Shown here in pieces: positions 30,066 to 51,927 of a DNA stretch of 64,000 nt. A model generated the notes under the pieces. It ran no database searches, was not told the DNA's origin, and worked only from the letters and a program-made list of their open reading frames with translations. Positions within the stretch are counted from its first letter, which is position 1, and each line of letters starts with the position of its first letter. The stretch is from contig CAVTJN010000005.1 in NCBI GenBank assembly GCA_963735055.1, positions 5,804 through 69,803 of the forward strand, given 5' to 3'. The position numbers were made by a program, and so were the translations under genes. The DNA is from an uncultured Chloroflexia bacterium (GTDB lineage: Bacteria; Chloroflexota; Dehalococcoidia; Dehalococcoidales; UBA2162).

Positions 30066-30194
30066 CTGTAACCCCTCCTGTTGTGATTGTTCAGAGACCA
30101 AGACGTGGCGGCTGATTCCTTGTCGCCGACTCCAACCTGGCACCTCAATATCCTTTATCTCATGTACGCGCCAACCACCTTAAACAACCCGCTC

Positions 30195-30394: not shown

Positions 30395-31156
30395 ATGGAA
30401 AACGTTTCGGTGACCGTTAACAAGGCGATAGACATACTGGAGGTTTTCCTGCAGAGGGAGGGCCAGGTTAGTCTGGCCGAGATCGCGCAGGCAACCGGAC
30501 TCAATGCAGCGACGGCTTTCAGGCTCGTGTCTACGCTCGCCCGAAGAGGCTACATCCGGCAACCCCAGAAGAAAGGGGCGTACCTGCTTGGCTTGAGGAT
30601 GCTCGATTTCAACTACGCGGTGAGGCGGAACCTGAAATACATAGACCTGGCGTATCTGGCGATGAGCAAGCTCAGCAAAGAGCAGAATGCGTCGGTCTAC
30701 ATGGCTGCTCTGGATGCGGACCAGGCGCTGATCATAGAGGAGGTCGGAGTCACCGAGGACCTGAGGATCAACTCTCCGGTCGGAAAGAGACTGCCTTTAC
30801 ACTGCACAGCGTGCGGCAAAGTGCTGCTGGCGGCGTTGTCCGAAGAGGAACGGCAAGCGTACTACTACAGGAACACGCTTCAATCGCTTACCACGAATAC
30901 GATTACCGACGTGGAACGGCTTGATCAGGAACTGGCGAGAGTGAGGCTGGAAGGTGTCGCTTTCGACAACGAAGAATACAGGATGGGCCTGTGGATAGCG
31001 GCCTCGCCGGTGTATGACGGCAGGCGGAGTGTGGTGGCGGCGGTCGGCATAATGGTCCCCACTTCAGATATCAACGCGGAGAGCAGTCAGAGACTCGCGA
31101 CGGCCATCAAGAGCTGCACGGCAATGATATCGCAGATCGTGGGGCGGGTCAGTTGA
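30395..31156 (+). CDS. IclR family transcriptional regulator
   Basis: N-terminal wHTH (LAEIAQATGLNAATAFRLVSTLARRGYI) plus a C-terminal IclR effector domain, 253 aa. Confidence 0.9.
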   Translation: MENVSVTVNKAIDILEVFLQREGQVSLAEIAQATGLNAATAFRLVSTLARRGYIRQPQKKGAYLLGLRMLDFNYAVRRNLKYIDLAYLAMSKLSKEQNASVYMAALDADQALIIEEVGVTEDLRINSPVGKRLPLHCTACGKVLLAALSEEERQAYYYRNTLQSLTTNTITDVERLDQELARVRLEGVAFDNEEYRMGLWIAASPVYDGRRSVVAAVGIMVPTSDINAESSQRLATAIKSCTAMISQIVGRVS

Positions 31157-31223: not shown

Positions 31224-32603
31224 TTGGCCATGACAGTCAATACGAAGACCTATCGGGAACCAGCGAAAGACATCAAGGTATGCGCTGAGGCAGATGTGGT
31301 GGTGGTGGGCGGAGGGCCGGGGGGACATTCGGCGGCTATTGCGGCGGCGCGCAATGGCGCTCGTACCGTACTTCTGGAAAGATACGGCCACCTGGGCGGT
31401 ATGGCCACCGGCGGAATCGTGATTCAGATACCGCACATGAGTGATGGTTCGGAGCAGCAGCAGATTGCCGGGCTCTGCCAGGAATGGATCGACCGGCTCG
31501 AGCCAATTGGCGGCGTTCTGGTCCCACGCCGCGAGGACAAAGGCTCAACCGACGAGAAGCTGGTGTCGCGGTGGCGCCGCTTCATGGGCAATGTCAACCG
31601 GGGCCGGATCGAGTACACCGCGTGGGTGGACCCGGAGCTTCTGAAGTGCGTGTTGAATGACATGGTGGAAGAAGCAGGGGTGAAACTATATCTACATTCC
31701 TGGGGAGCGCGGGCGATTGCCGAAGACAACCGCGTGAAGGGCATTGTCTTTGAAAGCAAGTCAGGACGGCAGGCGGTGCTTGGCAAGGTGATCATCGACG
31801 GCACTGGCGACGGGGACCTGTTGCCGTCTTCCGGGGCGGAGTCCTATGAAGCATTCGATCCCAAGCTGCGAAGCTCGATGCTGGCTCTGGTCTTCCGGAT
31901 TGGGAATTGCGACTACCAGAAGCTTTGTGATTTCAAGGAAACGCAACCGGATAAGTACGCCGAACTCATGAAACAACTCGCCACCGAGGCGGGCACGCGC
32001 CTGCTGCCCCTTCCATCTCCCCGCAACGACGTACTGTGGGTGAACAACTGGATCCCCGGTCTCGACTGCACGAAGGTAGAGGACCTGACGAAGCTGGAAG
32101 TGGACATGCGCAAAGTGATGCGTCGGGGGCATGACTTCATGAAGAAGAACATCCCGACCTTCGAGAACAGCTTCATCCTCGATACGGCGTCGCAAACGGG
32201 GACAAGAGGCTCCCGTCGGCTCGTTGGCGAGTTTACGCTCACAAAAGAAACGGTCAACTCGGGGACGATCTACGAAGACACCGTGGCGGTGATTCCGCGA
32301 CTCGGACCGGCATCCGGAGGGAGTCCCTTTGTTTACTTCCCCTACCGCGCCCTGGTCCCGAAAAAGGTCGAGGGATTCCTGGTGGCCGGACGCAGCTTCT
32401 CGTCTGACGATGCCGCCAATGACAGCATTAATCTTATCCCGCACTGCATTGCCATGGGAGAGGCCGCCGGAACTGCGGCCGCGCTCGCCGTAAGACAGGG
32501 TATAAACCCGAGACAAGTGGAATACCGGACGCTCCAGGAACGATTGATGGACAGGGGCGTGCCTTTGCCCGGGGTAAAGACGGCAACGAAAGCAATGAAG
32601 TAG
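31224..32603 (+). CDS. FAD-dependent oxidoreductase (FAD_oxidored/GIDA-like Rossmann fold)
   Basis: DVVVVGGGPGGHSAAIAAARNGARTVLLERYGHLGGMATGG dinucleotide-binding motif. Substrate unknown. Confidence 0.8.
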   Translation: MAMTVNTKTYREPAKDIKVCAEADVVVVGGGPGGHSAAIAAARNGARTVLLERYGHLGGMATGGIVIQIPHMSDGSEQQQIAGLCQEWIDRLEPIGGVLVPRREDKGSTDEKLVSRWRRFMGNVNRGRIEYTAWVDPELLKCVLNDMVEEAGVKLYLHSWGARAIAEDNRVKGIVFESKSGRQAVLGKVIIDGTGDGDLLPSSGAESYEAFDPKLRSSMLALVFRIGNCDYQKLCDFKETQPDKYAELMKQLATEAGTRLLPLPSPRNDVLWVNNWIPGLDCTKVEDLTKLEVDMRKVMRRGHDFMKKNIPTFENSFILDTASQTGTRGSRRLVGEFTLTKETVNSGTIYEDTVAVIPRLGPASGGSPFVYFPYRALVPKKVEGFLVAGRSFSSDDAANDSINLIPHCIAMGEAAGTAAALAVRQGINPRQVEYRTLQERLMDRGVPLPGVKTATKAMK

Positions 32604-32850
32604 CCGAGTTTTAAAGAGCGAGCGGAGGCATAAGACATCTGATCCAGAACCCATGACTTGCCAGATGCAGAAAAGGGAGGTCACGGGGTAGGGTGTCAAG
32701 TGAGTCCAGCGTCGTTCTCTTGATGACGAAAGGTTGGCCTAAACTCGATTCCCTGGCAAGTGGGTCGTTGCAGCGCTCGGATTAGTTGCGATCGACTTCG
32801 GCGAGGTCATCGATGACCCAGCCGGGACATTGGCAATGGAGGTGAATGCG

Positions 32851-33879
32851 ATGGCATTCAAAGTCGTCTATACCAGTGTGCCCCCGATCAAGATAGACGG
32901 TGAAGCGCTGCTGAGGCTTGGGGTGGATTACGTCGAACAGCCAGCGCCCGCGGAGGAAGATCTCATTGCCGTCGCCTCCGACGCGGATGCCCTGATCGCC
33001 AGAAGCGAGCCCTGTACTGGAAAAGTAGTCAGAAGTCTCCGGTCGTGCCGGCTCATCTTCACGCCAAAGGTGGGCTTTGAGAATATCGACGTAGCGGCCG
33101 CCACGGAGATGGGCATCTGCGTGGCCAACATGCCCGGCCTTTCGGCAGATGAAGTGTCTGATCACGCCATGGCTCTGCTGTTGTCTCTTGCCAGGAAGCT
33201 CTTCGGACTGGAGCGGACGGTCCGGGGGGGACAGTGGAAGGCCTTTCACGGTCCGGAGATGCAGGCCATATGGCAAGGAATCCCCCGGGTCCGGGGGCAA
33301 ACTCTGGGGCTGATAGGCTTCGGCTCCATTGCCCGAACCCTCACCCCCAAGGCGCAGGCCTTCGGACTGAGAGTGCTGGCCCACGACCCGTACGTTCCTT
33401 CCGAACTCATGAACGGCTTGGGCGTATTATCCGTGGACCTCACCGAATTGCTGAAGCAGTCGGACTACGTCTCTGTCCATTCTGTCCTTACCCCGGCCAC
33501 TCGTCACCTGCTGGGCCTGGCCCAATTCCAAATGATGAAGCCCACGGCCTATATCATCAATGCATCTCGCGGCGCTATCCTGGACGAAGAAGCGCTGTTC
33601 GTAGCGCTGAAACGAGGATACATTGCAGGCGCGGGACTGGATGTATTGGAAGTAGAGCCCATCAGAATGGACAATCGGCTCCTGGGGCTTGACAACGTCA
33701 TACTCACCGGCCACTCTGCGCATTACTCTGACCAGGTCTGGGCGGAACAAGCCCGGAGACCGGCGGAAGAAGTGGCCAGGATACTCCGCGGCGAATGGCC
33801 CAGGGGGTGGGTCAATCCCCAGGTGGAGGCGAGGTTCCTCGCCAGGTGGCCGCGTCTTGGGGGCCGGCTCCTGTCATAG
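32851..33879 (+). CDS. D-isomer-specific 2-hydroxyacid dehydrogenase family protein
   Basis: GLIGFGSIA NAD motif and the catalytic triad context INASRGAI / LDVLEVEP / LTGHSAH. Start chosen at MAFKVV after GGAGGTG (the track ORF starts at 32830). Confidence 0.85.
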   Translation: MAFKVVYTSVPPIKIDGEALLRLGVDYVEQPAPAEEDLIAVASDADALIARSEPCTGKVVRSLRSCRLIFTPKVGFENIDVAAATEMGICVANMPGLSADEVSDHAMALLLSLARKLFGLERTVRGGQWKAFHGPEMQAIWQGIPRVRGQTLGLIGFGSIARTLTPKAQAFGLRVLAHDPYVPSELMNGLGVLSVDLTELLKQSDYVSVHSVLTPATRHLLGLAQFQMMKPTAYIINASRGAILDEEALFVALKRGYIAGAGLDVLEVEPIRMDNRLLGLDNVILTGHSAHYSDQVWAEQARRPAEEVARILRGEWPRGWVNPQVEARFLARWPRLGGRLLS

Positions 33880-33891
33880 ACGACTTCTATA

Positions 33892-33920
33892 TTGACATCT
33901 GCAAAGTCCCGTGCTATACT
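33892..33920 (+). promoter_or_regulatory. Promoter TTGACA-N17-(TGc)TATACT, with a ~230-nt leader before the SBP gene
   Basis: TTGACA at 33892-33897 and TATACT at 33915-33920. Confidence 0.6.
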
Positions 33921-34148
33921 CGGAGCACTCCAAATCTGGTGGGACAAGAACTAGATTCATGCACCGCCGCATGATGATTGTGCGTGCGGCGGCTTGCCCT
34001 TCCTGATACATGTACTGCCGGTGGCGTTAGATCATGTCGACGTCCGGCGGCAGTGAGTAGCCATCCAAAGCCGCGCTGGCGCCGGCGTGTCTGGAGTTGC
34101 GCCCGGAGACCAGCGAATTGCGAAGTATTAAAACAGGAGTGAACGACG

Positions 34149-35961
34149 GTGAAGAGGAAGGTTCTGTTTCTGGCCAGTTTCGTTGCGCTGTTCGGGCTAT
34201 TGCTGGCATCATGCGCGCCGGCGGCAAGCTCGACTACTCCACCCAACTCCACGACAACATCACCCCCCACCACCACAACGGCCGCCCCCTCGAAGACGAC
34301 TAGTCCGGCCGATGCGCCCAAATACGGCGGCGTATTCACCTACTGGCTGAAGACTGATCCTATGGGTTTTGACGAAGCTTACTCAGTCCATCCCAACGTT
34401 ACTACCGCGGCCCTGACTCAGGACAAACTGATGATCGGCGACTGGGCGAAGGGCCCGGCCGGCAGCGGCGAGATCGACTGGACGTACGGTTTCATCGGAC
34501 AGCGTTGGCGTGATGACTGGTTCGCTGGCCCAAAGCTGGGAAACGCCGGATGGTCAAACGATCGTATACCATATCCGGCAAGGCGTCCACTTCGCCCTCA
34601 ACCCCAACAGCGAAGCGAGCCGCTTGGTGAATGGCCGCGAAGTCACTGCCGACGACGTCGCATTCAGCATCGACCGGGCGTTCACTTCAAAGACGGCCTA
34701 TCTCTACAGCGCGTACACGTCGGTCGGCAATAACCCCACCTCAATAAAGGCGCTAGACAAGTATACGGTGGAAGTCAAGACAAACCAGGCCATGCATGGC
34801 CTGATGGTGTTGGTCTGCGGAGGCTTCCTCTGGACCTGGCCCCGGGAGGTGATCAACAAGTACGGCGACATGAAGGACTGGCGGAACTCCGCCGGGACCG
34901 GGCCGTTCATGCTCACTGACTACGTTTCCGGCAGCGCCATCACCTTCATACGGAATCGCACCTATTTCGGCAAGGACCCGCTCCACTCGCAGAACCAACT
35001 GCCCTACTTGGACGGCGTCAAAATGCTGATCATACCGGACATATCTACGTATCTGGCCGCGCTGCGCACCGGGAAGCTTGATATGTTGCCGGCGGTCCAA
35101 TGGGAAGACGCCGCCTCGCTGATCAAGACCAATCCGGACCTAAAATACCACACGCGCTATCAGACTCCGACTTTCCCGGTTGGTCGCGTCGACAAGCAGG
35201 ACCTGCCCTTTAAGGACATCAAGGTCCGTCAGGCTCTGAACATGGCAATCGACAAGCAAGCTATCCTTAAATCCTACTTTGGTGGCCACGCGGCACTTCT
35301 GGGCTATCCCTGGCCGCCAACCAAGACATACGACGCGATCTACACTCCGCTTGAACAGCAGTCTCAGGCGGTAAAGGACCTGTTCACCTACGATCCAGTC
35401 AAGGCCAAGCAACTTCTGGCAGATGCAGGCTTTCCTAACGGGTTCGTCACCCACATCGTCTGCGACGGCACTTCCACTCAGCCGGACATGCTGTCCATCG
35501 TGCGGGAGCAACTACTCAAAATCGGCGTTGACATGCAGATCCAGCCCAAAGAAGCCGGAGTTTTCACGTCCATTACGAGGGGCAGGACCCACGAAGAGAT
35601 GGTCATGAAGAACGCGGTAGACTATTCGTTTCCGTTCCGCATGCTGATGGTGCGGAAGGAGAGCTTTGATGACCCGGCGTATTTCGAAGCTGATTTTACC
35701 AGACAAGCCTATAACACAGTCAGTCGACTGGTCGGGGTCGATGACGCCACTGTCAACAAAACCCTGAAGGAGGTCGGCAAGTTCAGTCTAGAGCAGGCCT
35801 GGGGCCTCTGGCTTCCAGCCCCCGAAGTGTATGACATGTGGCAGCCGTGGGTGGGCAACTATCACGGAGAGCAGGACGTCGGCTATCTGGCAGGCCCCGC
35901 TAACAGGAATTTGGACTGGGTCTGGATTGACCAGACACTGAAACAGTCAATGGGACGCTAA
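34149..35961 (+). CDS. Family-5 substrate-binding lipoprotein (apparent 1-nt frameshift near 34495-34500)
   Basis: GTG start after AGGAG. Lipobox LLLASCAP. Track ORFs 34149..34733 and 34510..35961 rejoin as ..DWTYGFIG.SVGVMTGSLAQSWETPD.., collinear with the paralogues. Confidence 0.85.
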
Positions 35962-35968
35962 GACTTAG

Positions 35969-36010
35969 CGAGGGAAGTCATCGACAGCTATTGTTCGATG
36001 ACCTCCCTCG
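35969..36010 (+). terminator. 16-bp stem-loop (1 mismatch) between the SBP and CoA-transferase genes, with no T-tract; possibly an attenuator or RNA-stability element
   Basis: CGAGGGAAGTCATCGA (35969-35984) pairs with TCGATGACCTCCCTCG (35995-36010). Confidence 0.4.
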
Positions 36011-36033
36011 AATTGTGAAGGGCGAGCCGAGTT

Positions 36034-37275
36034 ATGCCAGAATCGGACATGCTGAACCCGTACCGAGTCTTGGATCTGACTGACGAGAAGGGTCTTCTCT
36101 GCGGTAAGATCATGGCCGATCTCGGGGCGGACGTCGTGAAGGTGGAGCGGCCGGGAGGAGACGCGGCACGCTCGATCGGACCTTTCTACCACGATGATCC
36201 GGACCCCGAGAAAAGCCTCTTCTGGTTAGCCTTCAACACAAACAAGCGGGGAATCACACTCGACATCGAGACAGCAGACGGGCGCGACATTTTCAGGAAG
36301 CTGGTCACGACTGCTGACGTGGTAGTGGAAAGCTTCCCGCCGGGACATATGGAAGAGTTGGGTCTGGGGTATTCGGCTCTGGAGAAGATCAACCGGCGAG
36401 TGATCCTGGTGTCCATCAGCCCGTTTGGACAGACGGGGGCATACAAGGCCTACAAAGCGCCGGATATTGTCGCCTGGGCGATGGGCGGCTACATGTACTC
36501 GGTAGGTGATGCGGACCGGGCGCCGGTACGCATCAGCCACCACTCTCAGGCGTACCTTCATGCCGGCGGGCAGGCGGCCCAGGGAGCGCTGCTGGCGCTC
36601 TACGGCCGCGAGTTAAGGGGTGTTGGCCAGCACGTGGACGTCTCAATACGGGACTCGATTACAAGGTGCACGCCGGAAAGGATCACGGAGGCGTGGGATT
36701 TCCGGAAGGTAATAACGCGCAGGGGCGGTTCGGGGGCTACTCTCCAGGTGAAGCGGACCTGGCCGTGCAAAGACGGATACGTGTCGGCATTCTTCTGGTC
36801 CGGGCCGGATGCCAGGCGATGGAACTCGCCGCTGACCAACTGGATGGATAGTGAGGGAATGTCGAACGAATTCATCAGGACCATTGACTGGGACACGTTC
36901 GACATCCAGAAGTTGACCCAGGAGACCTATGACCGCATCGCAGAGCCGGTCGGCAGGTTTTTTATGGCGCACACGAAGGCGGAGTTGCTGGCCGGAGCGG
37001 CAAAACACAAGGCGCAATTGTATCCGCTGTCCACAACCGCCGACATATTGAACAATCCGCAGCTGGCATCCAGGGAGTTTTGGACGGAGATCGAACATAC
37101 CGAACCCGGTACCACGATTACTTATCCGGGCGGGTTCGCAAAGACCTCGGAAGCTCCGCCGAAAGTACGCCGGCGCGCCCCATTGATAGGGGAGCACAAT
37201 ATCGAGATCTACGAAAAGGAATTGGGTATCCCGCGCGACAGGCTGCTGGCGCTGAAACAGATGGGGGCAATTTAG
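36034..37275 (+). CDS. Family III CoA-transferase (CaiB/BaiF family)
   Basis: RVLDLTDEKGLLCGKIMADLGADVVKVERPGGD opening and ~410 aa length are typical of CoA_transf_3. Confidence 0.85.
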   Translation: MPESDMLNPYRVLDLTDEKGLLCGKIMADLGADVVKVERPGGDAARSIGPFYHDDPDPEKSLFWLAFNTNKRGITLDIETADGRDIFRKLVTTADVVVESFPPGHMEELGLGYSALEKINRRVILVSISPFGQTGAYKAYKAPDIVAWAMGGYMYSVGDADRAPVRISHHSQAYLHAGGQAAQGALLALYGRELRGVGQHVDVSIRDSITRCTPERITEAWDFRKVITRRGGSGATLQVKRTWPCKDGYVSAFFWSGPDARRWNSPLTNWMDSEGMSNEFIRTIDWDTFDIQKLTQETYDRIAEPVGRFFMAHTKAELLAGAAKHKAQLYPLSTTADILNNPQLASREFWTEIEHTEPGTTITYPGGFAKTSEAPPKVRRRAPLIGEHNIEIYEKELGIPRDRLLALKQMGAI

Positions 37276-37303
37276 GGCACCGAACAGGAAAGGGTACAGA
37301 CAC

Positions 37304-38497
37304 ATGACAGAGTCGCTGCTCGCGGGAATCAAGGTGGCGGATTTCAGCCGGGTGATCGTAGGTCCGCTGAGCACCAAGACCCTCTGCGATTACGGAGCAG
37401 AGGTGGTAAAGATAGAGGGCAGAAGCAGGCCGGGGCACTATCGGACAACCGGTCCGGAGCCCGACCTCAGCGCGCACTTCACCTCCTGGAACACCGGCAA
37501 ACTCAGCATCGCGGTGAACCTGGCCAAACCGCAGGGCGTGGAATTGGCGAAGAAGATCGTGGCATGGTCGGACGTTGTGGTCGAGAGCTTCGCCGGGGGA
37601 TCGATGCGCAGAATGGGCCTGGGTTACGATGAACTCAGAAAGGTGAAGCCAGACATCATCATGCTGAGTTCGTGCATGCAGGGGCAGACGGGGCCGTTTG
37701 CGTCGCATCCGGGCTGGGGCTTCCAGCTTTCCGGGCTTTCAGGCTTCTGCCACATTGCGGGCTGGCCGGACCGCCCGTCCCCGGAGCTGGGGGTATACAC
37801 CGATTTTGTGGCACCGCACTTCAACGTTTGCGCGATCATGGCCGCCCTGCTGTACCGGCGGCGGACGGGCAGGGGACTCTACATCGACATGTCGCAACTT
37901 GAAAATGCGGTGCAGTTCATGTCACCATTGATTCTGGACTACGCGGTGAACGGCCGGGTAGCCGAAAGAACCGGGAACAAGTGCTCATACGCTGCGCCGC
38001 ACAACGCGTACCGTTGTAGCGGCGACGACCGGTGGTGCGCCATTGCAGTATTCACCGATCAAGAGTGGCAGGCGTTCTGCCGCGTCACGGGGAATCCCTC
38101 CTGGATTACCGACCCGAGGTTCGGCACGCTGCTGGCCAGGAAAGAAAACGAGGGGGAGCTGGACAGGCTGGTGGCGGCATGGACGGCCAATCACACGGCG
38201 GAAGAGGTCATGCGGACGATGCAGGATGCGGGGGTGGCGGCGGGAGTGCTGGAGACCGGGGAGGACCTATTGGAACGTGACCCTCAGATACAGCACCGCC
38301 GGACTTTCCGCGAGGTTGATCATCCCAGGATGGGCAAGCATCACCCGGTGGCCTCGCCCTTTATAATGTCGGCGTCGGCCGACGAAGTGCGGAGAGCCCC
38401 GTTGCTCGGCGAACACAACGAATACGTCCTGAAACAGATCCTGGGCATGTCCGATGAAGAGATTGCCGATCTGGTGATGGCCGGCGCCGTTGAGTGA
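37304..38497 (+). CDS. Family III CoA-transferase (CaiB/BaiF family), second paralogue
   Basis: IKVADFSRVIVGPLSTKTLCDYGAEVVKIEGRSRPG..., 397 aa. Confidence 0.85.
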   Translation: MTESLLAGIKVADFSRVIVGPLSTKTLCDYGAEVVKIEGRSRPGHYRTTGPEPDLSAHFTSWNTGKLSIAVNLAKPQGVELAKKIVAWSDVVVESFAGGSMRRMGLGYDELRKVKPDIIMLSSCMQGQTGPFASHPGWGFQLSGLSGFCHIAGWPDRPSPELGVYTDFVAPHFNVCAIMAALLYRRRTGRGLYIDMSQLENAVQFMSPLILDYAVNGRVAERTGNKCSYAAPHNAYRCSGDDRWCAIAVFTDQEWQAFCRVTGNPSWITDPRFGTLLARKENEGELDRLVAAWTANHTAEEVMRTMQDAGVAAGVLETGEDLLERDPQIQHRRTFREVDHPRMGKHHPVASPFIMSASADEVRRAPLLGEHNEYVLKQILGMSDEEIADLVMAGAVE

Positions 38498-38603
38498 AAC
38501 TCCGGTGACAGATACCGGGACTTAGGACAGAGAAAGTCCCGGATCTCGCGGAGCGCAGACCTACCGAACGTACCCTTGAAGCTAATCAGGGAGGTAGACG
38601 CCC

Positions 38604-41078
38604 ATGGCACTACCACAAGACCCACCGCAAGAGCCGACCGATCCCGAAGAAACGCTGTGCACTTCCTGTGAATTGGGTGGCCCGCTGCTGATTCACGTGA
38701 AGAACGGAAGAATAGTCAGAGTGAGACCCCTGCCGTTGACGGAGGATGATGTCAAATCGGCTCACTGGAAAATAACGGTGGGCGACAAGACCTTCGAACC
38801 TCCGACCCGCACTACGGTGACCCCTTACGGAGTCGGCATTCGAGGCCGCATATACAACCCGCTCAGGCTGAGATACCCCTTGAAGAGAGTCGGGTTCAAG
38901 CCAGGCGGCAAAGACACTGTCGAGAACCGGGGCAAAGGGGAGTTCGTCCGCATCAGTTGGGACGAAGCTCTAGACACGACCGCCCAGGAAATATCGAGAA
39001 TCAAGAAGACCTACGGTCCGGCGGCGATTCTGCCGGAGATCGGGGGCCACAGCATGTGGGGCTTCATCCACGGCGGCTATAACAGGCGATTTTTTGACAT
39101 TTTGGGGTCGATGAGGCAGATGTCCAATCCCAACAGCTGGGAAGGGTGGTTCTGGGGCGCCGTTCACGCCTGGGGTTTCCAGAAGACGATCGGCACTCCC
39201 GATAATACCAACCTGTTGCAGGACGTGATGAAGAACTCGCAGCTGCTCGTCTTCTGGTCGAATGACCCGGAAGCTAACTGGGGCTACGGGGGGCAAGATA
39301 GCCTTATCTGGCGGCTGTGGCTGCGTGAGCTGGGAATCAAGCAGATATACATCGACCCGTTCTGCAACTTCACCGCCAGACGTTTCGCCCACAAGTGGAT
39401 TGCTCCAAGGCCGGCCACCGATGCGGCGCTTGCCGCAGCTATCGCCTACGTGTGGATAGCTGAAGGGACTTACGATAGGGAGTACGTGGCGACGCACACC
39501 GTTGGCTTCGATAAGTGGAAAGAATACATTCTGGGGGACGAAGATGGCGTCCGGAAGACGCCAGAGTGGGCGGAGCATATCAGCGGGGTCGAGGCCGGAG
39601 TGATCCGGGCATTAGCCAGGGATTGGGCATCGAAGAGAACGACTCTCTGTATCAGGGCGGGGATGGGAGGCGCCTGCCGGGCGCAGGGCGGCACCGAGTG
39701 GGCGAGGATGATGGTCCTTCTCCAGGGAATGCAGGGCCTTGGGAAGCCCGGCGTGACCATATGGGACAGCCAGAGCGGATCTCCTCTGAATCTGGATTTC
39801 AAGTTTCCGTCCTACCGTCCAGCGCCAGTGGACCTATTCGCCAAGACACACCCCACCAATCCCGTGGACCAGTATGTGTACAGACTCAGACTCCCCGAGG
39901 CGATACTGAACCCGCCGATACATTGGACCGGCGCCGGTACCAACTGCACCCAGTGGGGCGCTGACTATCAGTTCAAGAAGTACACGTATCCGGAGCCTGG
40001 GGACACCGAACTAAGAATGATTTACCGGTTGGGCGGCAACTACTTCGGCACGCTTCCAGAAGGCAGGAGATGGATGCAGGCCTATCAGAGCCCGAAGATC
40101 GAGTTTATGGTGGGTCAGACGATCTGGATGGAGGCCGAGACACCCTTCATGGACATTGTGCTTCCCGCCTGTACCCACTATGAGAGCACTGATATCAGTG
40201 AGTGGGCGTCCACGGATTTCAACGTCTGGAGAACCAACCATCGAGTGATTGTGTATCACCAGAAATGCATCGATCCGCTATACGAGTCGAAGACCGATAT
40301 GGATATCTTCACTTTGCTGGCAGAAAAGCTGGGGTTCAAGGAGCAGATGACTGAAGGGAACACGGTGGAGGACTGGATCAGGAAGACTTTCGAAGCAAGC
40401 GACATCACGAAATACATGACTTACGAGGAGTTCAAGAAGAAGGGGTACTTTGTGGTCCCGGTCCCTGACAATTACGACCCCAAGCCCGCCTTTAGATCTT
40501 TCCATGAGACTGGAACTGGTCTCGACACGCCCACGGGCAAGATTGAGTTCGAGTCGCAACGAATCCGCAAATACCTGCCTGATGACGAAGAGAGACCGCC
40601 GGTACCCCACTATGTCCCGTCCTGGGAAGGGCACGCTACCACGCCGCTGGTCAACAAGTTCCCGCTGCAAATGATCATCCCACATTCGAAGTTCTCCTAC
40701 CACAGTCATGGAGAACTGGACCCTTGGATCAGCGACATATGGATGCACCGGGTGTTCAAAAACGGATATCGCTACCGTCCCCTGCAAATCCATCCCGTTG
40801 ATGCCAACGCGAGAAGCATCGAGAATGGCGACATCGTGAAGGTATACAACGACAGGGCCACCGTCCTCCTGGTGGCATCGGTTACGGAAAAGATCAGGCC
40901 AGGCACGGTTCACGCTCGTGTTGCCGCGAAGTACGACCCCATTGAGCCAGGGAATCCCGACTCCATCGACCGGGGAGGGGCCGTGAACCTGCTCACCTCT
41001 GCCAGATTCTTGGCCGCCAACGTGCCGGGCCAGGTCGCACAGTGCCTGGTCGAAGTTCAGAAATGGGGAGGCCAATAG
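38604..41078 (+). CDS. Molybdopterin oxidoreductase large subunit, pyrogallol-phloroglucinol transhydroxylase (AthL/BthL)-like; cytoplasmic (no Tat signal, no N-terminal FeS Cys motif)
   Basis: 824 aa. The stretches GGPLLIHVKNGRIVRVRPL, ISWDEALDT..EISRIKKTYGPAAI, NPNSWEGWFWGAVHAWGF, LVFWSNDPEAN, ACRAQGGTEWARMM and LPACTHYESTDISEWA match my recollection of the Pelobacter transhydroxylase alpha subunit. Confidence 0.8.
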   Translation: MALPQDPPQEPTDPEETLCTSCELGGPLLIHVKNGRIVRVRPLPLTEDDVKSAHWKITVGDKTFEPPTRTTVTPYGVGIRGRIYNPLRLRYPLKRVGFKPGGKDTVENRGKGEFVRISWDEALDTTAQEISRIKKTYGPAAILPEIGGHSMWGFIHGGYNRRFFDILGSMRQMSNPNSWEGWFWGAVHAWGFQKTIGTPDNTNLLQDVMKNSQLLVFWSNDPEANWGYGGQDSLIWRLWLRELGIKQIYIDPFCNFTARRFAHKWIAPRPATDAALAAAIAYVWIAEGTYDREYVATHTVGFDKWKEYILGDEDGVRKTPEWAEHISGVEAGVIRALARDWASKRTTLCIRAGMGGACRAQGGTEWARMMVLLQGMQGLGKPGVTIWDSQSGSPLNLDFKFPSYRPAPVDLFAKTHPTNPVDQYVYRLRLPEAILNPPIHWTGAGTNCTQWGADYQFKKYTYPEPGDTELRMIYRLGGNYFGTLPEGRRWMQAYQSPKIEFMVGQTIWMEAETPFMDIVLPACTHYESTDISEWASTDFNVWRTNHRVIVYHQKCIDPLYESKTDMDIFTLLAEKLGFKEQMTEGNTVEDWIRKTFEASDITKYMTYEEFKKKGYFVVPVPDNYDPKPAFRSFHETGTGLDTPTGKIEFESQRIRKYLPDDEERPPVPHYVPSWEGHATTPLVNKFPLQMIIPHSKFSYHSHGELDPWISDIWMHRVFKNGYRYRPLQIHPVDANARSIENGDIVKVYNDRATVLLVASVTEKIRPGTVHARVAAKYDPIEPGNPDSIDRGGAVNLLTSARFLAANVPGQVAQCLVEVQKWGGQ

Positions 41079-41909
41079 ATGGGACAGAGAGCACTGGTCA
41101 TCGACGTGACCAAATGCACGGCGTGCTTCGATTGTTTCATCGCCTGCAAAGATGAGTTTGCAGGACAATCCTGGCCACCGTATTCAGAGGCTCAACCGGA
41201 TATGGGACAATCATGGATGCTCGTTGACGAGATAGAGCGGGGGCAATTCCCTCACGTGAAAGGTACGTTCGTCCCACAACCCTGCATGCTCTGTCAGGAC
41301 CCTCTTTGTGTCAAGGCAGCCAAGGACGGCGGCGCGTACCGGAGAGCAGACGGCATCGTAATCTTCGATCCACAGAAAAGTAAGGGTCAAAAAGGGATCG
41401 CGACCGCGTGCCGCTATGGCCGCGCCTTCTGGAACGAAGAGCTTAAGATCCCACAGAAATGCGACTTCTGCGCCCATCTGCTCGACAAGGGTTGGAAGGA
41501 GCCGCGGTGCGTGGAGGTCTGTCCGGCAAGAGTGTTCACATTCGGAGAGAAGGATGAGTTGCAGGAACTCATCGCCAAAGCAGAGCCACTTCATCCGGAA
41601 TACGGGACCGATCCGGCGGTCTACTATATCGGCCTGCCCAAGACTTTCGTTTCAGGCAGTGTGTATGGCGACGATACCAGGGACTGTCTGGAAGGTGTCG
41701 AGGTGACCCTGGTTGACAGGGCGACCGGAAATGGGCTGCCTGTAAAGACCAACAACTATGGGGATTTTGAATTCGACGGGCTTGAGGCAGGTGGTAGCTA
41801 CCGGCTGATCGTGAAAGCGGAAGGCTACTACCCGGTATCATTTGAAGACATACTCCTGGACAAAGACTTGCATCTGGGCAACATCTTCCTCAAAACGGTC
41901 ATAGCATAG
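41079..41909 (+). CDS. Transhydroxylase-like beta subunit: 4Fe-4S ferredoxin domain plus a C-terminal carboxypeptidase-regulatory-like beta-sandwich
   Basis: ATG immediately after the alpha-subunit stop. Cys motifs CTACFDCFIACKD, CMLCQDPLCV, CDFCAHLL..PRCVEVCP. C-terminal VSGSVYGD...GDFEFDGLEAGGSYRLIVKAEGY. Confidence 0.8.
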   Translation: MGQRALVIDVTKCTACFDCFIACKDEFAGQSWPPYSEAQPDMGQSWMLVDEIERGQFPHVKGTFVPQPCMLCQDPLCVKAAKDGGAYRRADGIVIFDPQKSKGQKGIATACRYGRAFWNEELKIPQKCDFCAHLLDKGWKEPRCVEVCPARVFTFGEKDELQELIAKAEPLHPEYGTDPAVYYIGLPKTFVSGSVYGDDTRDCLEGVEVTLVDRATGNGLPVKTNNYGDFEFDGLEAGGSYRLIVKAEGYYPVSFEDILLDKDLHLGNIFLKTVIA

Positions 41910-41916
41910 CGGTCGA

Positions 41917-43164
41917 TCATAGCCAGCCGTATTCCAGGACCGATTCTACGATGGCCCTTACGTTCTGCGGATTGGCTTCGTCCGGTATGCCGACGTCACC
42001 GTTCATAATGAACCCGCCATTCTTGCCGACCACTTCGATGAGATTCTTGCAGTAAGCCTTGACCTGTGTTGGCGTTCCGTGGATCAGAAGAGAGGACGGG
42101 ACTCCTCCTTCAATACACACCGTGTCCCCCAGGACTTCCTTCGCCTTGATGAGGTCAGTGCGCTCAAACCAGTACACCGCCTTACCCTTGGGGATGTCTT
42201 TGATCACTTCCAGACGAGAAGTGCAGTCGCCTTCAAAGAGCGGGTTGGGCGTGAAGCCGGCGTCGATACACGCAAGCATGAGCTTCTTCAGGGAAGGCCA
42301 GTAGAAGGTTCTGAACTGATCAGAGGACATGAACCCGTCGAGACCCTTGTGCAGGGGAATGAAAACCCGGTTGGCGCCGCGGGTCTTCGCCGCTGACGTC
42401 CCCTGTTGGATAATGGACGGAAGTACCTTGTCGATGGCAGCCAGCAGTTTGTCCGGGTTCCGGTACATGTCAAGCATTATTCCACGCGTCCCTCTGAAGA
42501 AGTCCCCCAGGTAGTCGAACGGCGCGTAGGTCGAAGCGGCGAACTGGCGCGGAAACCCCAGGGTTTCCATCTCTCTGGTGAGACTAACGGCGGCTGCCAC
42601 CATTTTGGACGCTTCCCGCCCGGCCTTGATGAGAGATTCGAGGGCCTCCGACACCTCCGGCTTTCCGAAGAAGGACACGTATGACACCATTCGGGTATAC
42701 CATGCCCAACTTAGCGGACGCAGCCCCGCCAGCGGCTCCAGTGAACCCCAGGCACGAGGCAGAAAGCGCCGCAGCAGGAAATCCGAGGGATCGTCAATGA
42801 AGGCATCGTACTCCTCAGCTTTCATGTATTCGCCTTCTACAAACTGGTAGGTAACGTCAGGCTTCCCGTGGTGCCCGGGCCAGACCAGTTGCCGGTAGTC
42901 CAGTATCTCGAGCGTCGGCGCCCAGGCAAGGATCCGGAAGGTATCGGGAAAGACATCCGGCTGAAAATCAGCCATGAACTTCTTCATGGCCGTGGCCAGT
43001 TTGCCGTAATCGTGCATGGCTTCCTGGAAACTCAGACCGGCGTATGTCGCCGGGAAGAAGGTCGCGAAGGGGGCGAAAGGGACCCGGTCCGGTTGTCTCA
43101 GGCTAACAGCATCCTGGATTCTTTGAACACGCTCCTGCAAGAGTTCCTCTGTCTGCTTCGTCAT
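41917..43164 (-). CDS. Uroporphyrinogen decarboxylase (URO-D) family protein, MtaA/CmuA-like methyltransferase fold
   Basis: 415 aa. N-terminal ..PDRVPFAPFATFF.. and C-terminal ..GGFIMNGDVGIPDEANPQNVRAIVESVLEYG are typical of the URO-D superfamily. Confidence 0.75.
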   Translation of the reverse strand: MTKQTEELLQERVQRIQDAVSLRQPDRVPFAPFATFFPATYAGLSFQEAMHDYGKLATAMKKFMADFQPDVFPDTFRILAWAPTLEILDYRQLVWPGHHGKPDVTYQFVEGEYMKAEEYDAFIDDPSDFLLRRFLPRAWGSLEPLAGLRPLSWAWYTRMVSYVSFFGKPEVSEALESLIKAGREASKMVAAAVSLTREMETLGFPRQFAASTYAPFDYLGDFFRGTRGIMLDMYRNPDKLLAAIDKVLPSIIQQGTSAAKTRGANRVFIPLHKGLDGFMSSDQFRTFYWPSLKKLMLACIDAGFTPNPLFEGDCTSRLEVIKDIPKGKAVYWFERTDLIKAKEVLGDTVCIEGGVPSSLLIHGTPTQVKAYCKNLIEVVGKNGGFIMNGDVGIPDEANPQNVRAIVESVLEYGWL

Positions 43165-43266
43165 GTCTGCGCACCTCCCGTCTTGACCGACATCATATCG
43201 CAGCCTGCAAAGGAACGAAAGCCGGCGAATTATGCAGGCCGGTGCAGGAGACGCTTCGTCGGCAGC

Positions 43267-43770
43267 CTAGAGATGGACGATCTTGACGTCGACCTGGCCG
43301 TCGCGAACGTCGAGAATACCGACCGTACCCAGGCCACGCTGATAGTTCAGAAACGTCGGGCTGCCCGGGTTGACGAAGAGAATACCGTGCGACCGCTCGA
43401 CGGTCGTCCGGTGCTCGTGGCCAAAGACAACGATGTCCGGCAGTTCCTCCGGGTTCCCGCCGGGCAAGAAGGTTGGCTGTCCGAGGCCGTACGGCCGCTG
43501 GTGGACGAGCCACAGCTTATGCCCCTCTAGTGCCAGGACGTGCTTCGACTTGATGCGCTGGTCCCTCTCCATCGTGGCCACGGAATCATCGTCGCCCAGA
43601 GCGGCCAGCACGGGGGCGATCGTAGCCAGATCGTCAAGGACGGTCGTGAAGTAAATATCACCGGCGTGAAGCACCAGCTCGACGCCTTCGAAGGCCTTCC
43701 TTACCTCCGGCATGGGAAGCTCTTTCACAGCGTCCGGGACGTGACTGTCCGACAGCAATCCAACGCGCAC
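43267..43770 (-). CDS. YfcE/MJ0936-type metallophosphoesterase
   Basis: GTG start. Motifs LLSDSH, HAGDI, GDDD, VFGHEHR, NPGS. Confidence 0.8.
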   Translation of the reverse strand: MRVGLLSDSHVPDAVKELPMPEVRKAFEGVELVLHAGDIYFTTVLDDLATIAPVLAALGDDDSVATMERDQRIKSKHVLALEGHKLWLVHQRPYGLGQPTFLPGGNPEELPDIVVFGHEHRTTVERSHGILFVNPGSPTFLNYQRGLGTVGILDVRDGQVDVKIVHL

Positions 43771-44303: not shown

Positions 44304-46136
44304 CTAGTGACCCATGGACTTCTTCAGGGTCTGGTCAACCCAGGCATACTGGATCGAATTGAACCCGTTCATGTACCCAACGCTGCTGATGCCGTAGAAG
44401 TTCTTGACCCATGGTTGCCAGATGGTATAGGAAGCCGGGCTTGGAAAAGGAATCGCCCAGGCCTGGTCCAGAGCATATTTCATGAGCTCCTTGTGGATCT
44501 TGTCGGCCTGAGCTGTGTCGGTAAGGGACAAGGCCATCATCTTGGTCCGTGCCTCTTCGACCTTCGGATCATTCACATAGCTCTCGTTAGTCATGGTGTT
44601 TCCGTACAAGGAGGCAGCCTGATACAGGTTGGTGATCGGAGAGTACGTCCCGTAGATGATTTGGTCAAAAGATCGAGCTCTATAGATTGAGGTCCAAGCC
44701 CCGTTTTCTTTCGAGTCGATGGTCAGATCCACCCCTATTTTGGCCCACATTAGCTTGATCATTGAGTAATAGTCGATCACGGTGCCGGTGGAGTCGGTCT
44801 GCGGAGTGATCACGCTGGTCTTGAACCCGCTGGGCAGACCGGCATCGCCTAGAAGCTGTTTCGCTTTGGTGGGGTTGTAGCTGTAGAGTTCTTTTACTGA
44901 CGCCGGGCACTCAGGGTCGTCAAGTCCCAGATACGCGTCTTTGAATTCTACCCAATAGCCAATGGGCCACGTCAGGGTCCTGGCATTCGGTCCATAGAGG
45001 TTCTTGTTAATTGCATCGAAGTCAATCGCCATCATCAGTGCCCGCCGCACCCTGACGTCGTTGAACGGCGCCTTATCGGTACGCAAGGAGGTTACGGTCG
45101 CGGCCCCGGAACGGCCCCCTTCGAGGTACCTGACATCGGGTATCTGCTTCTGGAGAATGGGAAAGTCTTCCCAGTTGACCGCGCCCAGCCTATCTATTTT
45201 CCCGGTTCTCATGGCAGCCTGCCTGGTGGAGACGTCGGTGATGATGAGTGCCTTGACGCTATCTACATACGGAAGCTGGTTACCCTTACCCGGACCGATC
45301 GGGTCTTTAGCCCAGTATTTCGGGTTCTTCACAAAGGTCAGCGAGCTGTTGTCAACGAAATCAGTAATCATAAACGGCCCGGTGCCGACCGAGTTGCGCC
45401 AGTCGATCATGTTGCCGTACTTCTGCACGACCTCGGGCGGAACGATATGGACGCATTCGGTAACGCGGATAAGGGCGTTTGTCATGCTTGTGGGTGCTGC
45501 CACGAACTTCACAGTGTATTTGTCCGGAGCGGTGATACTTGCCGTCCTGAGGTCCGGATAGGCGCTGTAAAGATAGGCCCTCGAGTTCGTGAACACCTGC
45601 TTCAGTGAGAATACAACATCGGCGGCAGTGAGTTCCCGCCCGTTTACCAGCTTACTAGCTTCGCTATCTGGATTGAGGGCCCAGTGGATGCCTTTCCTGA
45701 TATTGAAAGTGAGCGCTCCCTCATCAAAGTTGAAGTCCCAGCTCTCGGCAATGGCGCCGGTGTCGAATTGAATCCGGAAGGCGCCCCAGGTAGTCTGATT
45801 GGCGCCAGCCGGCCCCTTGGTCCAGTCTCCGACGAACAGGTCTTCGTTAGTCATCTGCAACGTATTCATTTCGGGCGGGCCGAAGAAGCCATATACTTCA
45901 TCGAAGTCGCCTACGTTCAAATACAATCCAAGAATAACTTGCCCGCCATACTGGGGTTTGTCAGCGGGTGGCGTGGTAGCCACCGGGGCCGACGTCGTCT
46001 TGGTCGGGGCTGTGGTGGTCGGTGCACCGGGGGTCTGGGTGGTCGTCGTAGGCTCCTGGGACGGAGCGCACGAAGCCAGCAGGAGACCGGCAACCGTAAG
46101 GCAAATCAATGCCCTCACTATTGTGTTCTTAGTCAA
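44304..46136 (-). CDS. Family-5 substrate-binding lipoprotein
   Basis: TTG start after GGAGG. Lipobox LLLASCAP, Thr/Pro linker, PQYGG, NPKYWAKDPIGPGKGNQLPYVD. Confidence 0.9.
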   Translation of the reverse strand: MTKNTIVRALICLTVAGLLLASCAPSQEPTTTTQTPGAPTTTAPTKTTSAPVATTPPADKPQYGGQVILGLYLNVGDFDEVYGFFGPPEMNTLQMTNEDLFVGDWTKGPAGANQTTWGAFRIQFDTGAIAESWDFNFDEGALTFNIRKGIHWALNPDSEASKLVNGRELTAADVVFSLKQVFTNSRAYLYSAYPDLRTASITAPDKYTVKFVAAPTSMTNALIRVTECVHIVPPEVVQKYGNMIDWRNSVGTGPFMITDFVDNSSLTFVKNPKYWAKDPIGPGKGNQLPYVDSVKALIITDVSTRQAAMRTGKIDRLGAVNWEDFPILQKQIPDVRYLEGGRSGAATVTSLRTDKAPFNDVRVRRALMMAIDFDAINKNLYGPNARTLTWPIGYWVEFKDAYLGLDDPECPASVKELYSYNPTKAKQLLGDAGLPSGFKTSVITPQTDSTGTVIDYYSMIKLMWAKIGVDLTIDSKENGAWTSIYRARSFDQIIYGTYSPITNLYQAASLYGNTMTNESYVNDPKVEEARTKMMALSLTDTAQADKIHKELMKYALDQAWAIPFPSPASYTIWQPWVKNFYGISSVGYMNGFNSIQYAWVDQTLKKSMGH

Positions 46137-46381: not shown

Positions 46382-47518
46382 CTAGACGTTAAGCATCATG
46401 GCTATCTTTTCACGGTGAAAGTCGCTATCGCCGTAAGTTGCCTCACCCGCCTTGGCACGCTTGAGATACAAGTGCATGTCATGATCCCACGTGTACCCGA
46501 TACCCCCGTGTACCTGAATCCCGTCAAAAGCTGCCTGCTTGTAGGTTTCTCCGCACCACGCTTTGGCCATTGAGGCCGCCAGAGCCATGTCGTGGTCATT
46601 CTCCATTATTGTCCATGCTGCGTAGTAAGTGATGGACGTTGCACCCTCAACCTGAACGGCGAGGTTGGAGAGTTTGTGCTGGATGGCCTGAAAGCTGCCG
46701 ATGGGACGCCCGAACGCGATTCTCATCTTCGAATAGTCGATGGACGCATCCATGGCCCAACGCGCCCCGCCTGTCATCCAGGCAGATTCAGCCACCTGGG
46801 CCTCGACCAGGATTCTCTTCACGATCGGCCAGCCTTTGTCCAATTCGCCCAGCATGTCTTTTGCGGGCACGCGCACGTTGTCAAATGTGACCTCACATAT
46901 TGGCTCGCCGGTCATGGTCTTCAACTTCTCAGTCGTAACACCCACTGCCCTTGCATCTACCAGAAAGAGGGTAATGCCGTCTTCGTCATCACGTTTGCCT
47001 CCCGTCCTTGTCACACACAGGAAATGGTCGGCGACGTGGGCACAGGGCACGAACAGTTTCGTCCCGTTGATGACAAAACCGTCTCCCGACGGAGTGGCCG
47101 TAACCGCGACATCCGATGCCTCAAGGCCGCCGCCGGCTTCCATGAATGCGAAGGTCATTATCACGTCGCCACTCGCTATTGCGGAAAGAAACCGCTGCTT
47201 CTGCTCTTCGTTACCGGCCGCCAGGATGGGGCGTCCGCTCAGCACCACGGTCGGAACAAATGGCCCCGGCAACAGCGCCCGGCCGCACTCCTCGAGAAGC
47301 ACCACCAGATCTAGAAAGCTGCTTCCGACACCGCCGTACTTTTCAGGAAAGGCGAGCCCAAGCCAGCCCAGGTCCGCGATCTTCTTCCACAGCTCCGGAG
47401 AGTATCCCTTTTCGTCCTCCATCATCGCCCTGACGAGTTTCTTGGGGCATTCTTTGTCGAGAAACTCCCGGGCTGAGGTCTTCAGCATGACCTGTTCTTC
47501 ATCAAGTTCGAAATTCAT
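46382..47518 (-). CDS. Acyl-CoA dehydrogenase family protein (short type, 378 aa)
   Basis: ACAD N/M/C domain pattern. The C-terminus ..GGIGYTWDHDMHLYLKRAKAGEATYGDSDFHRE has no Glu at the MCAD YEGT position. Confidence 0.85.
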   Translation of the reverse strand: MNFELDEEQVMLKTSAREFLDKECPKKLVRAMMEDEKGYSPELWKKIADLGWLGLAFPEKYGGVGSSFLDLVVLLEECGRALLPGPFVPTVVLSGRPILAAGNEEQKQRFLSAIASGDVIMTFAFMEAGGGLEASDVAVTATPSGDGFVINGTKLFVPCAHVADHFLCVTRTGGKRDDEDGITLFLVDARAVGVTTEKLKTMTGEPICEVTFDNVRVPAKDMLGELDKGWPIVKRILVEAQVAESAWMTGGARWAMDASIDYSKMRIAFGRPIGSFQAIQHKLSNLAVQVEGATSITYYAAWTIMENDHDMALAASMAKAWCGETYKQAAFDGIQVHGGIGYTWDHDMHLYLKRAKAGEATYGDSDFHREKIAMMLNV

Positions 47519-47533
47519 ACTTGTCCGCTCCCT

Positions 47534-48763: not shown

Positions 48764-48997
48764 ACCATCTCCTTAGATCCGGCGATGCCCGAATGGAGGC
48801 CGTCATCGGGTCACTATCCCGGGCTCCCGCCCGGGCACCCAGGACACCGGCGAACTCGCGGCCCGTCTCGGGACGCGTGCGTCTGTCTCCTGTCTAAAAG
48901 GCTTATCCCGTGATGTTCACTGGACAGGCGCGAGCCGGAGACCGATGACGCGGGCCACCTCGTCCGCAGTCCCCTGGCTCGCGCGAATACTAGTCCA

Positions 48998-51898: not shown

Positions 51899-51927
51899 GG
51901 TGCACCGCTCCCTGTTATCGATTTCCG

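Follow-up and report, generated by a model that had tools for sequence, protein, structure and literature searches.

The pyrogallol-phloroglucinol transhydroxylase found in Pelobacter acidigallici, AthL/BthL (PDB 4v4c, 4v4d, 4v4e), belongs to a family of two-subunit molybdenum enzymes, a divergent member of which (alpha/beta) is encoded beside a coenzyme A (CoA)-transferase at positions 34149–41909 of the DNA studied here. This DNA, which we call the window, is a stretch of 64,000 nucleotides (C5:5804–69803) from a 3.3-Mb, 23-contig metagenome-assembled genome (MAG) of an uncultured Chloroflexia bacterium whose nearest relatives are Dehalococcoidales MAGs; C, G, and L are our handles for contigs, genomes, and loci. 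The transhydroxylase family also contains resorcinol hydroxylase RhLS of Azoarcus anaerobius and 3,5-dihydroxybenzoate hydroxylase DbhLS of Thauera aromatica AR-1, which hydroxylate phenols, a phenolic carboxylate among them, in a net redox reaction, and the family is therefore not limited to redox-neutral hydroxyl transfer. RhLS and DbhLS work in nitrate reducers with high-potential electron acceptors, and we know of no linkage of either to a CoA-transferase.

Two further systems bear comparison with the locus. Succinyl-CoA:(R)-benzylsuccinate CoA-transferase, BbsEF (PDB 9fn0), consists of two paralogous family-III subunits, one of which has Tyr in place of the catalytic Asp. The 4-hydroxybenzoyl-CoA reductase of anaerobes is a molybdenum enzyme that takes a phenolic hydroxyl group off an aryl-CoA, but it is a functional analogue only, being a member of the xanthine-oxidase family with molybdopterin cytosine dinucleotide and different subunits. 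Transhydroxylase genes of Chloroflexi have been reported before and were read as a sign of pyrogallol fermentation (PMC3971608, PMC4959651), while BbsEF-like genes in Dehalococcoidia were noted separately (PMC4959651). Our literature search returned no paper that joins the terms transhydroxylase, CoA-transferase, and molybd*. From the comparison below, we favor the view that the clade to which the window enzyme belongs has a real but loose association with the CoA-dependent catabolism of imported carboxylic acids.

The Alpha and Beta Subunits

The genes on which the comparison turns are the following.

36034–37275, + strand: CoAT1, non-catalytic-type subunit of a BbsEF-like family-III CoA-transferase (PF02515; PDB 9fn0_A)
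37304–38497, + strand: CoAT2, catalytic-type subunit of the same CoA-transferase (PF02515; PDB 9fn0_B)
38604–41078, + strand: alpha, large bis-molybdopterin guanine dinucleotide (bis-MGD) subunit of the transhydroxylase family, clade W (PF21423, PF00384, PF01568; PDB 4v4c_A)
41079–41909, + strand: beta, small Fe-S subunit with a C-terminal beta-barrel domain (Pfam Fer4_11 and CarboxypepD_reg)
46382–55788, − strand: bbs-like beta-oxidation operon with an HMGS-like::DUF35 fusion, an SCP-x-type thiolase, two acyl-CoA dehydrogenase (ACAD) pairs, an enoyl-CoA hydratase (ECH), and a short-chain dehydrogenase/reductase (SDR) (Pfam)

Alpha, of 824 residues, carries the AhtL-like N-terminal domain (PF21423, AhtL-like_1st) followed by the Molybdopterin and Molydop_binding domains that hold bis-MGD. 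It aligns over residues 19–823, essentially its full length, with the Pelobacter large subunit (4v4c_A) at E = 1e-211 and 44% identity, which bears out its earlier designation as a transhydroxylase-like molybdoenzyme. As in AthL, there is no FS0 Cys motif, just two Cys residues lying near the N-terminus, and no Tat signal or twin-arginine motif; alpha/beta would therefore be cytoplasmic, in the same compartment as CoA esters. Unlike AthL, alpha is shorter by ∼50 residues and shows loop deletions. Beta (276 residues) begins directly after alpha and, like BthL, combines a ferredoxin-type Fe-S part, in which the Cys motifs expected for three [4Fe-4S] clusters are visible in the translation, with a C-terminal CarboxypepD_reg-like beta-barrel. 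The adjacency of alpha and beta is kept in nearly all of the relatives' loci, and alpha is the sole transhydroxylase-like large subunit in its own genome.

Orthologues found with the Pelobacter probe are 72–96% identical to it across Desulfuromonadota, Acidobacteriota, Bacillota, and Actinomycetota, and include those of Eubacterium oxidoreducens DSM 3217, Holophaga foetida, and Parasporobacterium as well as many MAGs. Alpha, at 44%, falls outside this set. In trees of 276 and 396 sequences, built without RhL and DbhL, it lies in a separate clade with support of 1.0 in both trees, which we call clade W and whose members share 56% identity or more with the window alpha. The deeper members of clade W are known from metagenome contigs only; a search of genome contigs aimed at them returned only crown members and proteins outside the clade.

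Eight pocket positions of the Pelobacter enzyme were compared (His144, Arg153, Asp174, Ser175, Trp176, Trp354, Tyr404, and Tyr560), and the residue types at these numbers were confirmed in its sequence. We take His144, Asp174, Tyr404, Arg153, and Tyr560 to be catalytic or substrate-binding residues and Ser175 to be the Mo ligand. The signature at these positions is HRDSWWYY in the Pelobacter enzyme, H-[RK]-D-S-W-x-Y-Y in most of the family, and HGNSWMYF in the window alpha. Clade W as a whole is variable, with HGMSWEYF, HGDSWQYF, HYVSWMYF, and an H-x-N-S-W-x-Y form that has a deletion. Alpha thus keeps the Mo-ligand Ser175 together with His144, Trp176, and Tyr404, while Asp174 is replaced by Asn within an ungapped motif (NPNSWEGW vs NPDSWEGW), and Arg153 and Tyr560, whose loops are shortened, are replaced or deleted, depending on the alignment. 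The full set of catalytic residues of the transhydroxylase orthologue group is not present. Judged from these comparisons, alpha is best described as a divergent family member and not as an orthologue of the pyrogallol-phloroglucinol transhydroxylase. A classical transhydroxylase is not what these data show, with alpha outside the 72–96% clade and Asp174, Arg153, and Tyr560 lost.

CoAT1, CoAT2, alpha, and beta are all full-length and keep every column that is invariant in a set of 24 members of the clade, such as the Mo-ligand Ser and the Cys motifs of beta. An AlphaFold2 model of alpha, made from a 24-sequence alignment, has a mean pLDDT of 65, with values <50 around residues 148–156, 175–199, and 352–364 and over the C-terminal domain, which is too low in confidence for an analysis of the pocket. 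In the literature searched, we found no description of a transhydroxylase-family clade with this pocket, with CoA-transferase coupling, or with the beta fusions described below.

The CoA-Transferase and Its Genomic Partners

The preliminary description counted two family-III CoA-transferases in the block. The two genes instead appear to encode the two subunits of a single heteromeric BbsEF-type enzyme. The best PDB match of CoAT1 is chain 9fn0_A of the benzylsuccinate CoA-transferase (3e-67, vs 1.5e-23 for 9fn0_B) and that of CoAT2 is chain 9fn0_B (1e-71, vs 2.5e-23 for 9fn0_A), so that each cross-match is weaker by >40 orders of magnitude. At the position of the catalytic Asp169 (chain residue 171) of the E. 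coli formyl-CoA transferase YfdW, CoAT1 has Tyr, as does 9fn0_A in the alignment, while CoAT2 and 9fn0_B have the Asp of a YTD motif, according to a hand alignment through the downstream helix. The presence of the catalytic Asp in only one of the two subunits would be the feature that defines the BbsEF-type family. The window chains differ from BbsEF in that they are roughly 35–40% identical to it, as read by eye from printed alignments, and reach no NCBIfam equivalog cut-off.

The genome holds 22 PF02515 matches and ∼9 tandem pairs of family-III CoA-transferase genes, on C4, C6, C7, C17 (three pairs), C19 (two pairs), and C5. These paralogous pairs are 55–62% identical, which implies several substrate specificities. 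In the sister genomes G151, G281, G289, and G212, some CoAT1-like matches are single open reading frames of 822–835 residues that look like fused subunits, and another CoA-transferase paralogue, in the window's own genome, contains internal stop codons. Separately, C19:229084–245794 of the window's own genome brings a CoA-transferase pair, a cyclase-family (PF04199) gene, and a 32%-identical molybdopterin oxidoreductase together within 17 kb, and may be a second catabolic cluster that combines molybdenum and CoA chemistry.

Orthologues of CoAT1 and CoAT2 (65–74% identity) are found in four genomes of the same family, G218, G140, G285, and G248. Those of G218 and G140 run in the same direction as the counterparts of the window SDR, ECH, two ACADs, thiolase, and DUF35 fusion, which are orthologues at 57–80% identity, and in G285, they adjoin orthologues of the bbs-like genes. 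In G248, which is of the same genus, they follow an SDR gene and an FAD oxidoreductase gene, the latter directly upstream of them and an orthologue (73% identity) of the window FAD oxidoreductase. The linkage of the transferase to thiolase and DUF35, SDR, ECH, and ACAD genes is that of the bbs operon of anaerobic toluene degraders, and, on the strength of the sister genomes, the conserved partner of CoAT1/CoAT2 is probably this bbs-like beta-oxidation system, which in the window has been parted from the transferase onto the other strand. The window differs from the bbs operon in several respects. Paired ACADs and the HMGS-like::DUF35 fusion stand in place of BbsG and BbsAB, the window contains no fumarate-adding glycyl-radical enzyme, and the transferase pair stands inverted and apart from the operon, with the molybdenum enzyme after it.

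None of the four sister loci of CoAT1/CoAT2 contains alpha/beta. Since the sister transferase orthologues lie with bbs-like genes and the alpha/beta orthologues lie elsewhere, the adjacency of the two sets of genes in the window is specific to this genome. The loci of G218 and G140 have one more gene that is absent from the window, between the SDR and CoAT1 orthologues, which is of the glyceraldehyde-3-phosphate dehydrogenase family in one (L316:5345–6364, Gp_dh_N/C) and in the other is known by its size alone, as an open reading frame of the same 339 residues (L320:4631–5650).

Gene Neighborhoods of the Alpha/Beta Relatives

The preliminary description held that the linkage of the transferase and molybdenum-enzyme genes should recur in some other genome. 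Counting non-redundant loci with a same-strand tandem CoA-transferase pair within 7 kb of alpha, we find such a pair at 3 of 19 clade-W loci, the window included, vs 0 of 233 loci elsewhere in the family (Fisher p = 3.7e-4). A further 65 loci outside clade W, some of which repeat loci already counted, gave no pair. The linkage does, therefore, recur beyond the window's own genome. The three pairs have the same subunit order but are just 35–45% identical and non-orthologous. The pair of L025 is nearer to another pair of the window's genome than to the window pair, which argues that its recruitment was independent of the window's; that argument is limited to L025, and for L323 the matter is undecided.

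The two other loci with pairs illustrate the setting. In L025 (alpha 69% identical), a MarR gene is followed by Old Yellow Enzyme (OYE), MaoC, the two CoA-transferase genes, alpha, beta, and a TRAP transporter, and in L323 (59%), the order is OYE, methylmalonyl-CoA mutase (MCM), the two CoA-transferase genes, DUF35, thiolase, two small genes, alpha, and beta. Other CoA-related or redox genes accompany further clade-W members, and OYE, B12 mutase, thiolase/DUF35, and carboxylate transporter genes are frequent neighbors in the clade. L325 (62%) has OYE, MCM, a B12-binding protein, TctC, a glyoxalase-fold protein, an AMP-ligase, and an FAD oxidoreductase ahead of alpha and beta. L321 (62%) has OYE, ECH, Amidohydro_2, TRAP, an FAD protein, a nitroreductase, alpha, a beta::GltD fusion, FAD_binding_4, CCG, and AOR, and in L271 (70%), an FAD oxidoreductase precedes alpha and a beta::GltD fusion. 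In L328 (59%), TRAP, a glycyl-radical enzyme (801 residues), and its activase (L328:3675–7116) precede alpha, beta, and DUF35, with a probable thiolase downstream.

Fusions of beta to a GltD-like domain are enriched in clade W too, at 2 of 19 loci vs 1 of 233 others. In the two clade-W cases (L271:3988–6225 and L321:10467–12689; 740–745 residues), beta is fused to an N-terminal Fer4_20/Pyr_redox_2 (GltD-like) domain of the NAD(P)H-type flavoprotein kind, while the one outside the clade, L123, is a 739-residue beta known by its length alone.

A different context is conserved in another part of the clade. L315 (G248:C10), L317 (G277:C1), and L024 share an operon in which iron-containing alcohol dehydrogenase (Fe-ADH), alpha, beta, MatE, and MFS genes are joined by those for a small protein and a 479-residue protein; this alpha/beta subclade is 74% identical and has the pocket HGDSWQYF. 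Finally, in L329:392–11651, 2-Hacid_dh, beta, and alpha are duplicated in inverted orientation on either side of two HpcH/HpaI genes; the duplication looks perfect and may be an assembly artefact.

The Solute-Binding Protein Gene and the Flanks

The remaining features in and around the block are listed here.

30395–31156, + strand: IclR-family regulator (Pfam HTH_IclR and IclR_C; NCBIfam PcaR/PcaU/PobR subfamily, below cut-off)
31224–32603, + strand: FAD-dependent oxidoreductase (PF12831; Pfam E = 1.4e-85)
32830–33879, + strand: D-2-hydroxyacid dehydrogenase family protein (Pfam 2-Hacid_dh_C, 2-Hacid_dh)
33892–33920, + strand: promoter-like site TTGACA-17-TATACT with upstream TG (11/12 consensus positions; consensus match alone)
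34149–35961, + strand: family-5 solute-binding lipoprotein gene (SBP_bac_5), frameshifted at 34503 (lipobox LLASC, domain match)
35968–36009, + strand: hairpin without a T tract in the spacer between the SBP gene and CoAT1 (RNA fold)
38500–38553 (about), + strand: second stem-loop, ahead of the GGGAGG Shine-Dalgarno sequence of alpha (spacer fold)
41917–43164, − strand: URO-D/MtaA-like protein (Pfam URO-D, partial match)

All of the reading frames at 34149–41909 are on the + strand, in the order solute-binding protein (SBP), CoAT1, CoAT2, alpha, and beta, with gaps of 72, 28, 106, and 0 bp. The earlier account of five co-oriented, tightly spaced genes is correct as to strand and spacing, but the SBP gene is not a single open frame. 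Frame 1 runs to 34502 and encodes the lipoprotein signal with its lipobox LLASC, a Thr/Pro linker, and the first ∼118 residues, and from 34504 the SBP_bac_5 domain carries on in frame 2. The alignments of four homologues run unbroken over this point, which indicates that a single base at 34503 is extra; it lies outside any homopolymer (site 34500–34506), and the frameshift reflects either a pseudogene or an assembly indel error. The gene is one of six SBP_bac_5 lipoprotein paralogues within 37 kb (22613–24445, 26476–28098, 28254–30143, 34149–35961, 44304–46136, and 57568–59469). Among the window open reading frames scanned, none encodes a permease or ATPase of the Dpp/Opp type, and the six would thus be orphan binding proteins.

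The 78-nt spacer between the SBP gene and CoAT1 (35959–36036) folds at −29.4 kcal/mol (z = −4.0), and the sequence of its hairpin is unique in the genome. The hairpin reported between these genes is therefore real, but it is not the only intercistronic element of the block, as the 106-nt spacer between CoAT2 and alpha holds the second stem-loop and folds at −36.9 kcal/mol (z = −2.5). The promoter-like site, which precedes the SBP gene, is the sole one on the + strand in 33800–43400, and further into the block the + strand showed neither a promoter-like nor a terminator-like site. The genes of the block may be co-transcribed.

The flanking genes are those named in the preliminary description, as Pfam matches confirm, with IclR, FAD oxidoreductase, and 2-hydroxyacid dehydrogenase genes upstream, and downstream, on the − strand, the URO-D-like gene and the beta-oxidation-like operon. 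Beta and the URO-D-like gene are convergent, with 7 bp between their stop codons (41909–41917), too little space for a terminator of either gene. In G248, a 41%-identical homologue of the URO-D-like protein is encoded at a similar position after CoAT2. A search for insertion scars found no direct or inverted repeats flanking alpha/beta, and no anomaly of composition was seen over 34–42 kb. At the left of the island, a phage-type integrase gene (3721–4602) and a DDE transposase gene (7140–8330) lie in DNA with a GC content of 0.51–0.53, vs ∼0.58 elsewhere, and this stretch looks like a mobile-element remnant.

Proposed Function and Alternative Explanations

Our preferred reading, to which we give about an even chance, is that two modules of an island for the anaerobic catabolism of organic acids come together in the block and that the clade-W alpha/beta is functionally tied to CoA-dependent acid catabolism, a setting that differs from the phloroglucinol pathway of the Pelobacter enzyme. 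In the first module, CoAT1/CoAT2 would activate an imported carboxylic acid with a CoA donor, e.g., succinyl-CoA, and the activated acid would be passed to the bbs-like beta-oxidation enzymes, whose genes lie on the opposite strand at 46.4–55.8 kb. The second module would be a cytoplasmic Mo-bis-MGD alpha with a multi-[4Fe-4S] beta, from an uncharacterized clade of the pyrogallol-transhydroxylase family, that acts on a carboxylated and probably phenolic compound, or on the CoA ester of this compound, by adding, removing, or shifting a hydroxyl group. With Asp174, Arg153, and Tyr560 lost, alpha/beta would not be expected to run the pyrogallol to phloroglucinol reaction. In the relatives that have a beta::GltD-like fusion, the route of electrons to or from NAD(P)(H) would lead through the clusters of beta. 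Fusion to an NAD(P)H-type flavoprotein in turn points to net redox chemistry, either hydroxylation or dehydroxylation, unlike the redox-neutral hydroxyl shuttle of Pelobacter. The reductive direction seems more likely in strict anaerobes that have no high-potential acceptors. That the molybdenum enzyme acts on a CoA thioester is purely conjectural, and for this genome we infer the functional coupling, the substrate class, and the redox direction alike.

Several observations weigh against this reading. The nearest alpha/beta relatives (74–84% identity), two genomes of the same genus among them, have no CoA-transferase gene nearby; they are found with an SBP gene (L011, L269), in the Fe-ADH operon (L024, G248, G277), with an esterase gene, or alone. 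In G248, the place of alpha/beta after the CoAT2 orthologue is taken by a split SAF and GD_AH (altronate/galactarate dehydratase-like) pair (L313:12110–13599, on G248:C2). The position after CoAT2 thus appears to be a variable slot, and the adjacency would be recent and could be incidental. The two stem-loops set the SBP gene, the transferase pair, and alpha/beta apart from one another, and the SBP gene is frameshifted. The transporter genes that directly adjoin many alpha/beta pairs are as consistent with action on a free imported compound as with action on a CoA ester. Where Arg153 and Tyr560 fall varies with the alignment, and the roles of the Pelobacter pocket residues are those that Messerschmidt et al. 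reportedly assigned in 2004. Traces in soil metagenomes are of low depth: among the public sequence runs, only two soil DNA runs contained fragments of the locus, none of them over 34503 or the junctions, and no RNA run matched.

Alternatively, the juxtaposition could be incidental, in a plastic catabolic island where the transferase serves the beta-oxidation operon only and a self-contained alpha/beta acts, like the known enzymes of the transhydroxylase family, on a free imported phenolic without any CoA ester. We regard this as possible but on the unlikely side. It fits the finding that orthologues of the modules are unlinked in all of the sister genomes examined, that alpha/beta behaves as a mobile two-gene unit in many contexts, that the slot after CoAT2 differs in G248, and that stem-loops lie on both sides of the transferase pair; in addition, the ∼9 pairs in the genome raise the chance of an adjacency. 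It accounts less well for the recurrence of tandem pairs in two other clade-W lineages, given that none is seen at 233 other family loci, many of which come from Dehalococcoidia that are rich in CoA-transferases. The non-orthologous pair of L025 argues for independent recruitment, and at other clade-W loci, CoA ligase, MCM, ECH, and thiolase/DUF35 genes share tight operons with alpha/beta. Because the adjacency is young in this genome, it could represent either an adaptive fusion of modules or a rearrangement accident.

A block in decay and out of use, as the frameshift at 34503 and the further CoA-transferase paralogue with internal stop codons might suggest, is improbable. The four enzyme genes retain their full length and all invariant columns. 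Single-base indel errors are plausible in a 23-contig assembly with many relatives among long-read soil MAGs, and any of the five other SBP_bac_5 paralogues in the window could substitute for the broken one.

We consider it very unlikely that the locus serves the classical pyrogallol-phloroglucinol route, with alpha/beta isomerizing pyrogallol and the transferase activating the ring-cleavage product (3-hydroxy-5-oxohexanoate or triacetate) for thiolytic cleavage: the fold and the subunit architecture do match the Pelobacter enzyme, but even between phyla, true orthologues keep 72% identity or more, vs 44% for alpha, alpha has Asn for Asp174 and does not conserve Arg153 or Tyr560, and the BbsEF-type transferase is tied to a bbs-like operon with ACAD pairs and not to a triacetate route. 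Two cyclase-family (DPGC-type) genes and a single BKACE (TAL-type) gene lie on different contigs, none near the locus; this scatter is weak evidence against a canonical phloroglucinol pathway. The preliminary description considered the pairing of a transhydroxylase with CoA-transferases unexpected, a premise that is itself weak, as Brune and Schink are said to have described, in 1992, a CoA-transferase step on the ring-cleavage product in the Pelobacter pathway. A CoA-dependent lower pathway has been described in Pelobacter and Eubacterium (PMC10470551), and earlier Chloroflexi genome papers annotate pyrogallol hydroxytransferases (PMC3971608, PMC4959651), both of which are in keeping with the classical route.

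Conclusions

The two transferase genes of the block should be counted as one enzyme, and at least one sizeable branch of the transhydroxylase family has a rebuilt active site and different operons. Transhydroxylase-like genes of Chloroflexi are routinely called pyrogallol hydroxytransferases and taken as evidence for pyrogallol fermentation (PMC3971608, PMC4959651). As a broader and rather doubtful proposal, clade W might be an unrecognized class of cytoplasmic molybdenum enzymes, linked to NAD(P)H or ferredoxin, that take a hydroxyl group off the ring by reduction or put one on by oxidation, with aryl- or alicyclic-carboxyl-CoA esters or the free acids as substrates. Such enzymes would be the DMSO-reductase-family counterpart of 4-hydroxybenzoyl-CoA reductase, and through them strict anaerobes, Dehalococcoidia among them, might channel hydroxylated aromatic acids from humic matter and lignin into CoA-dependent ring reduction and beta-oxidation. 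If the coupling seen at this locus is functional, it would point to an undescribed molybdenum-dependent step by which the abundant uncultured Dehalococcoidia of soils and sediments break down hydroxylated organic acids anaerobically.

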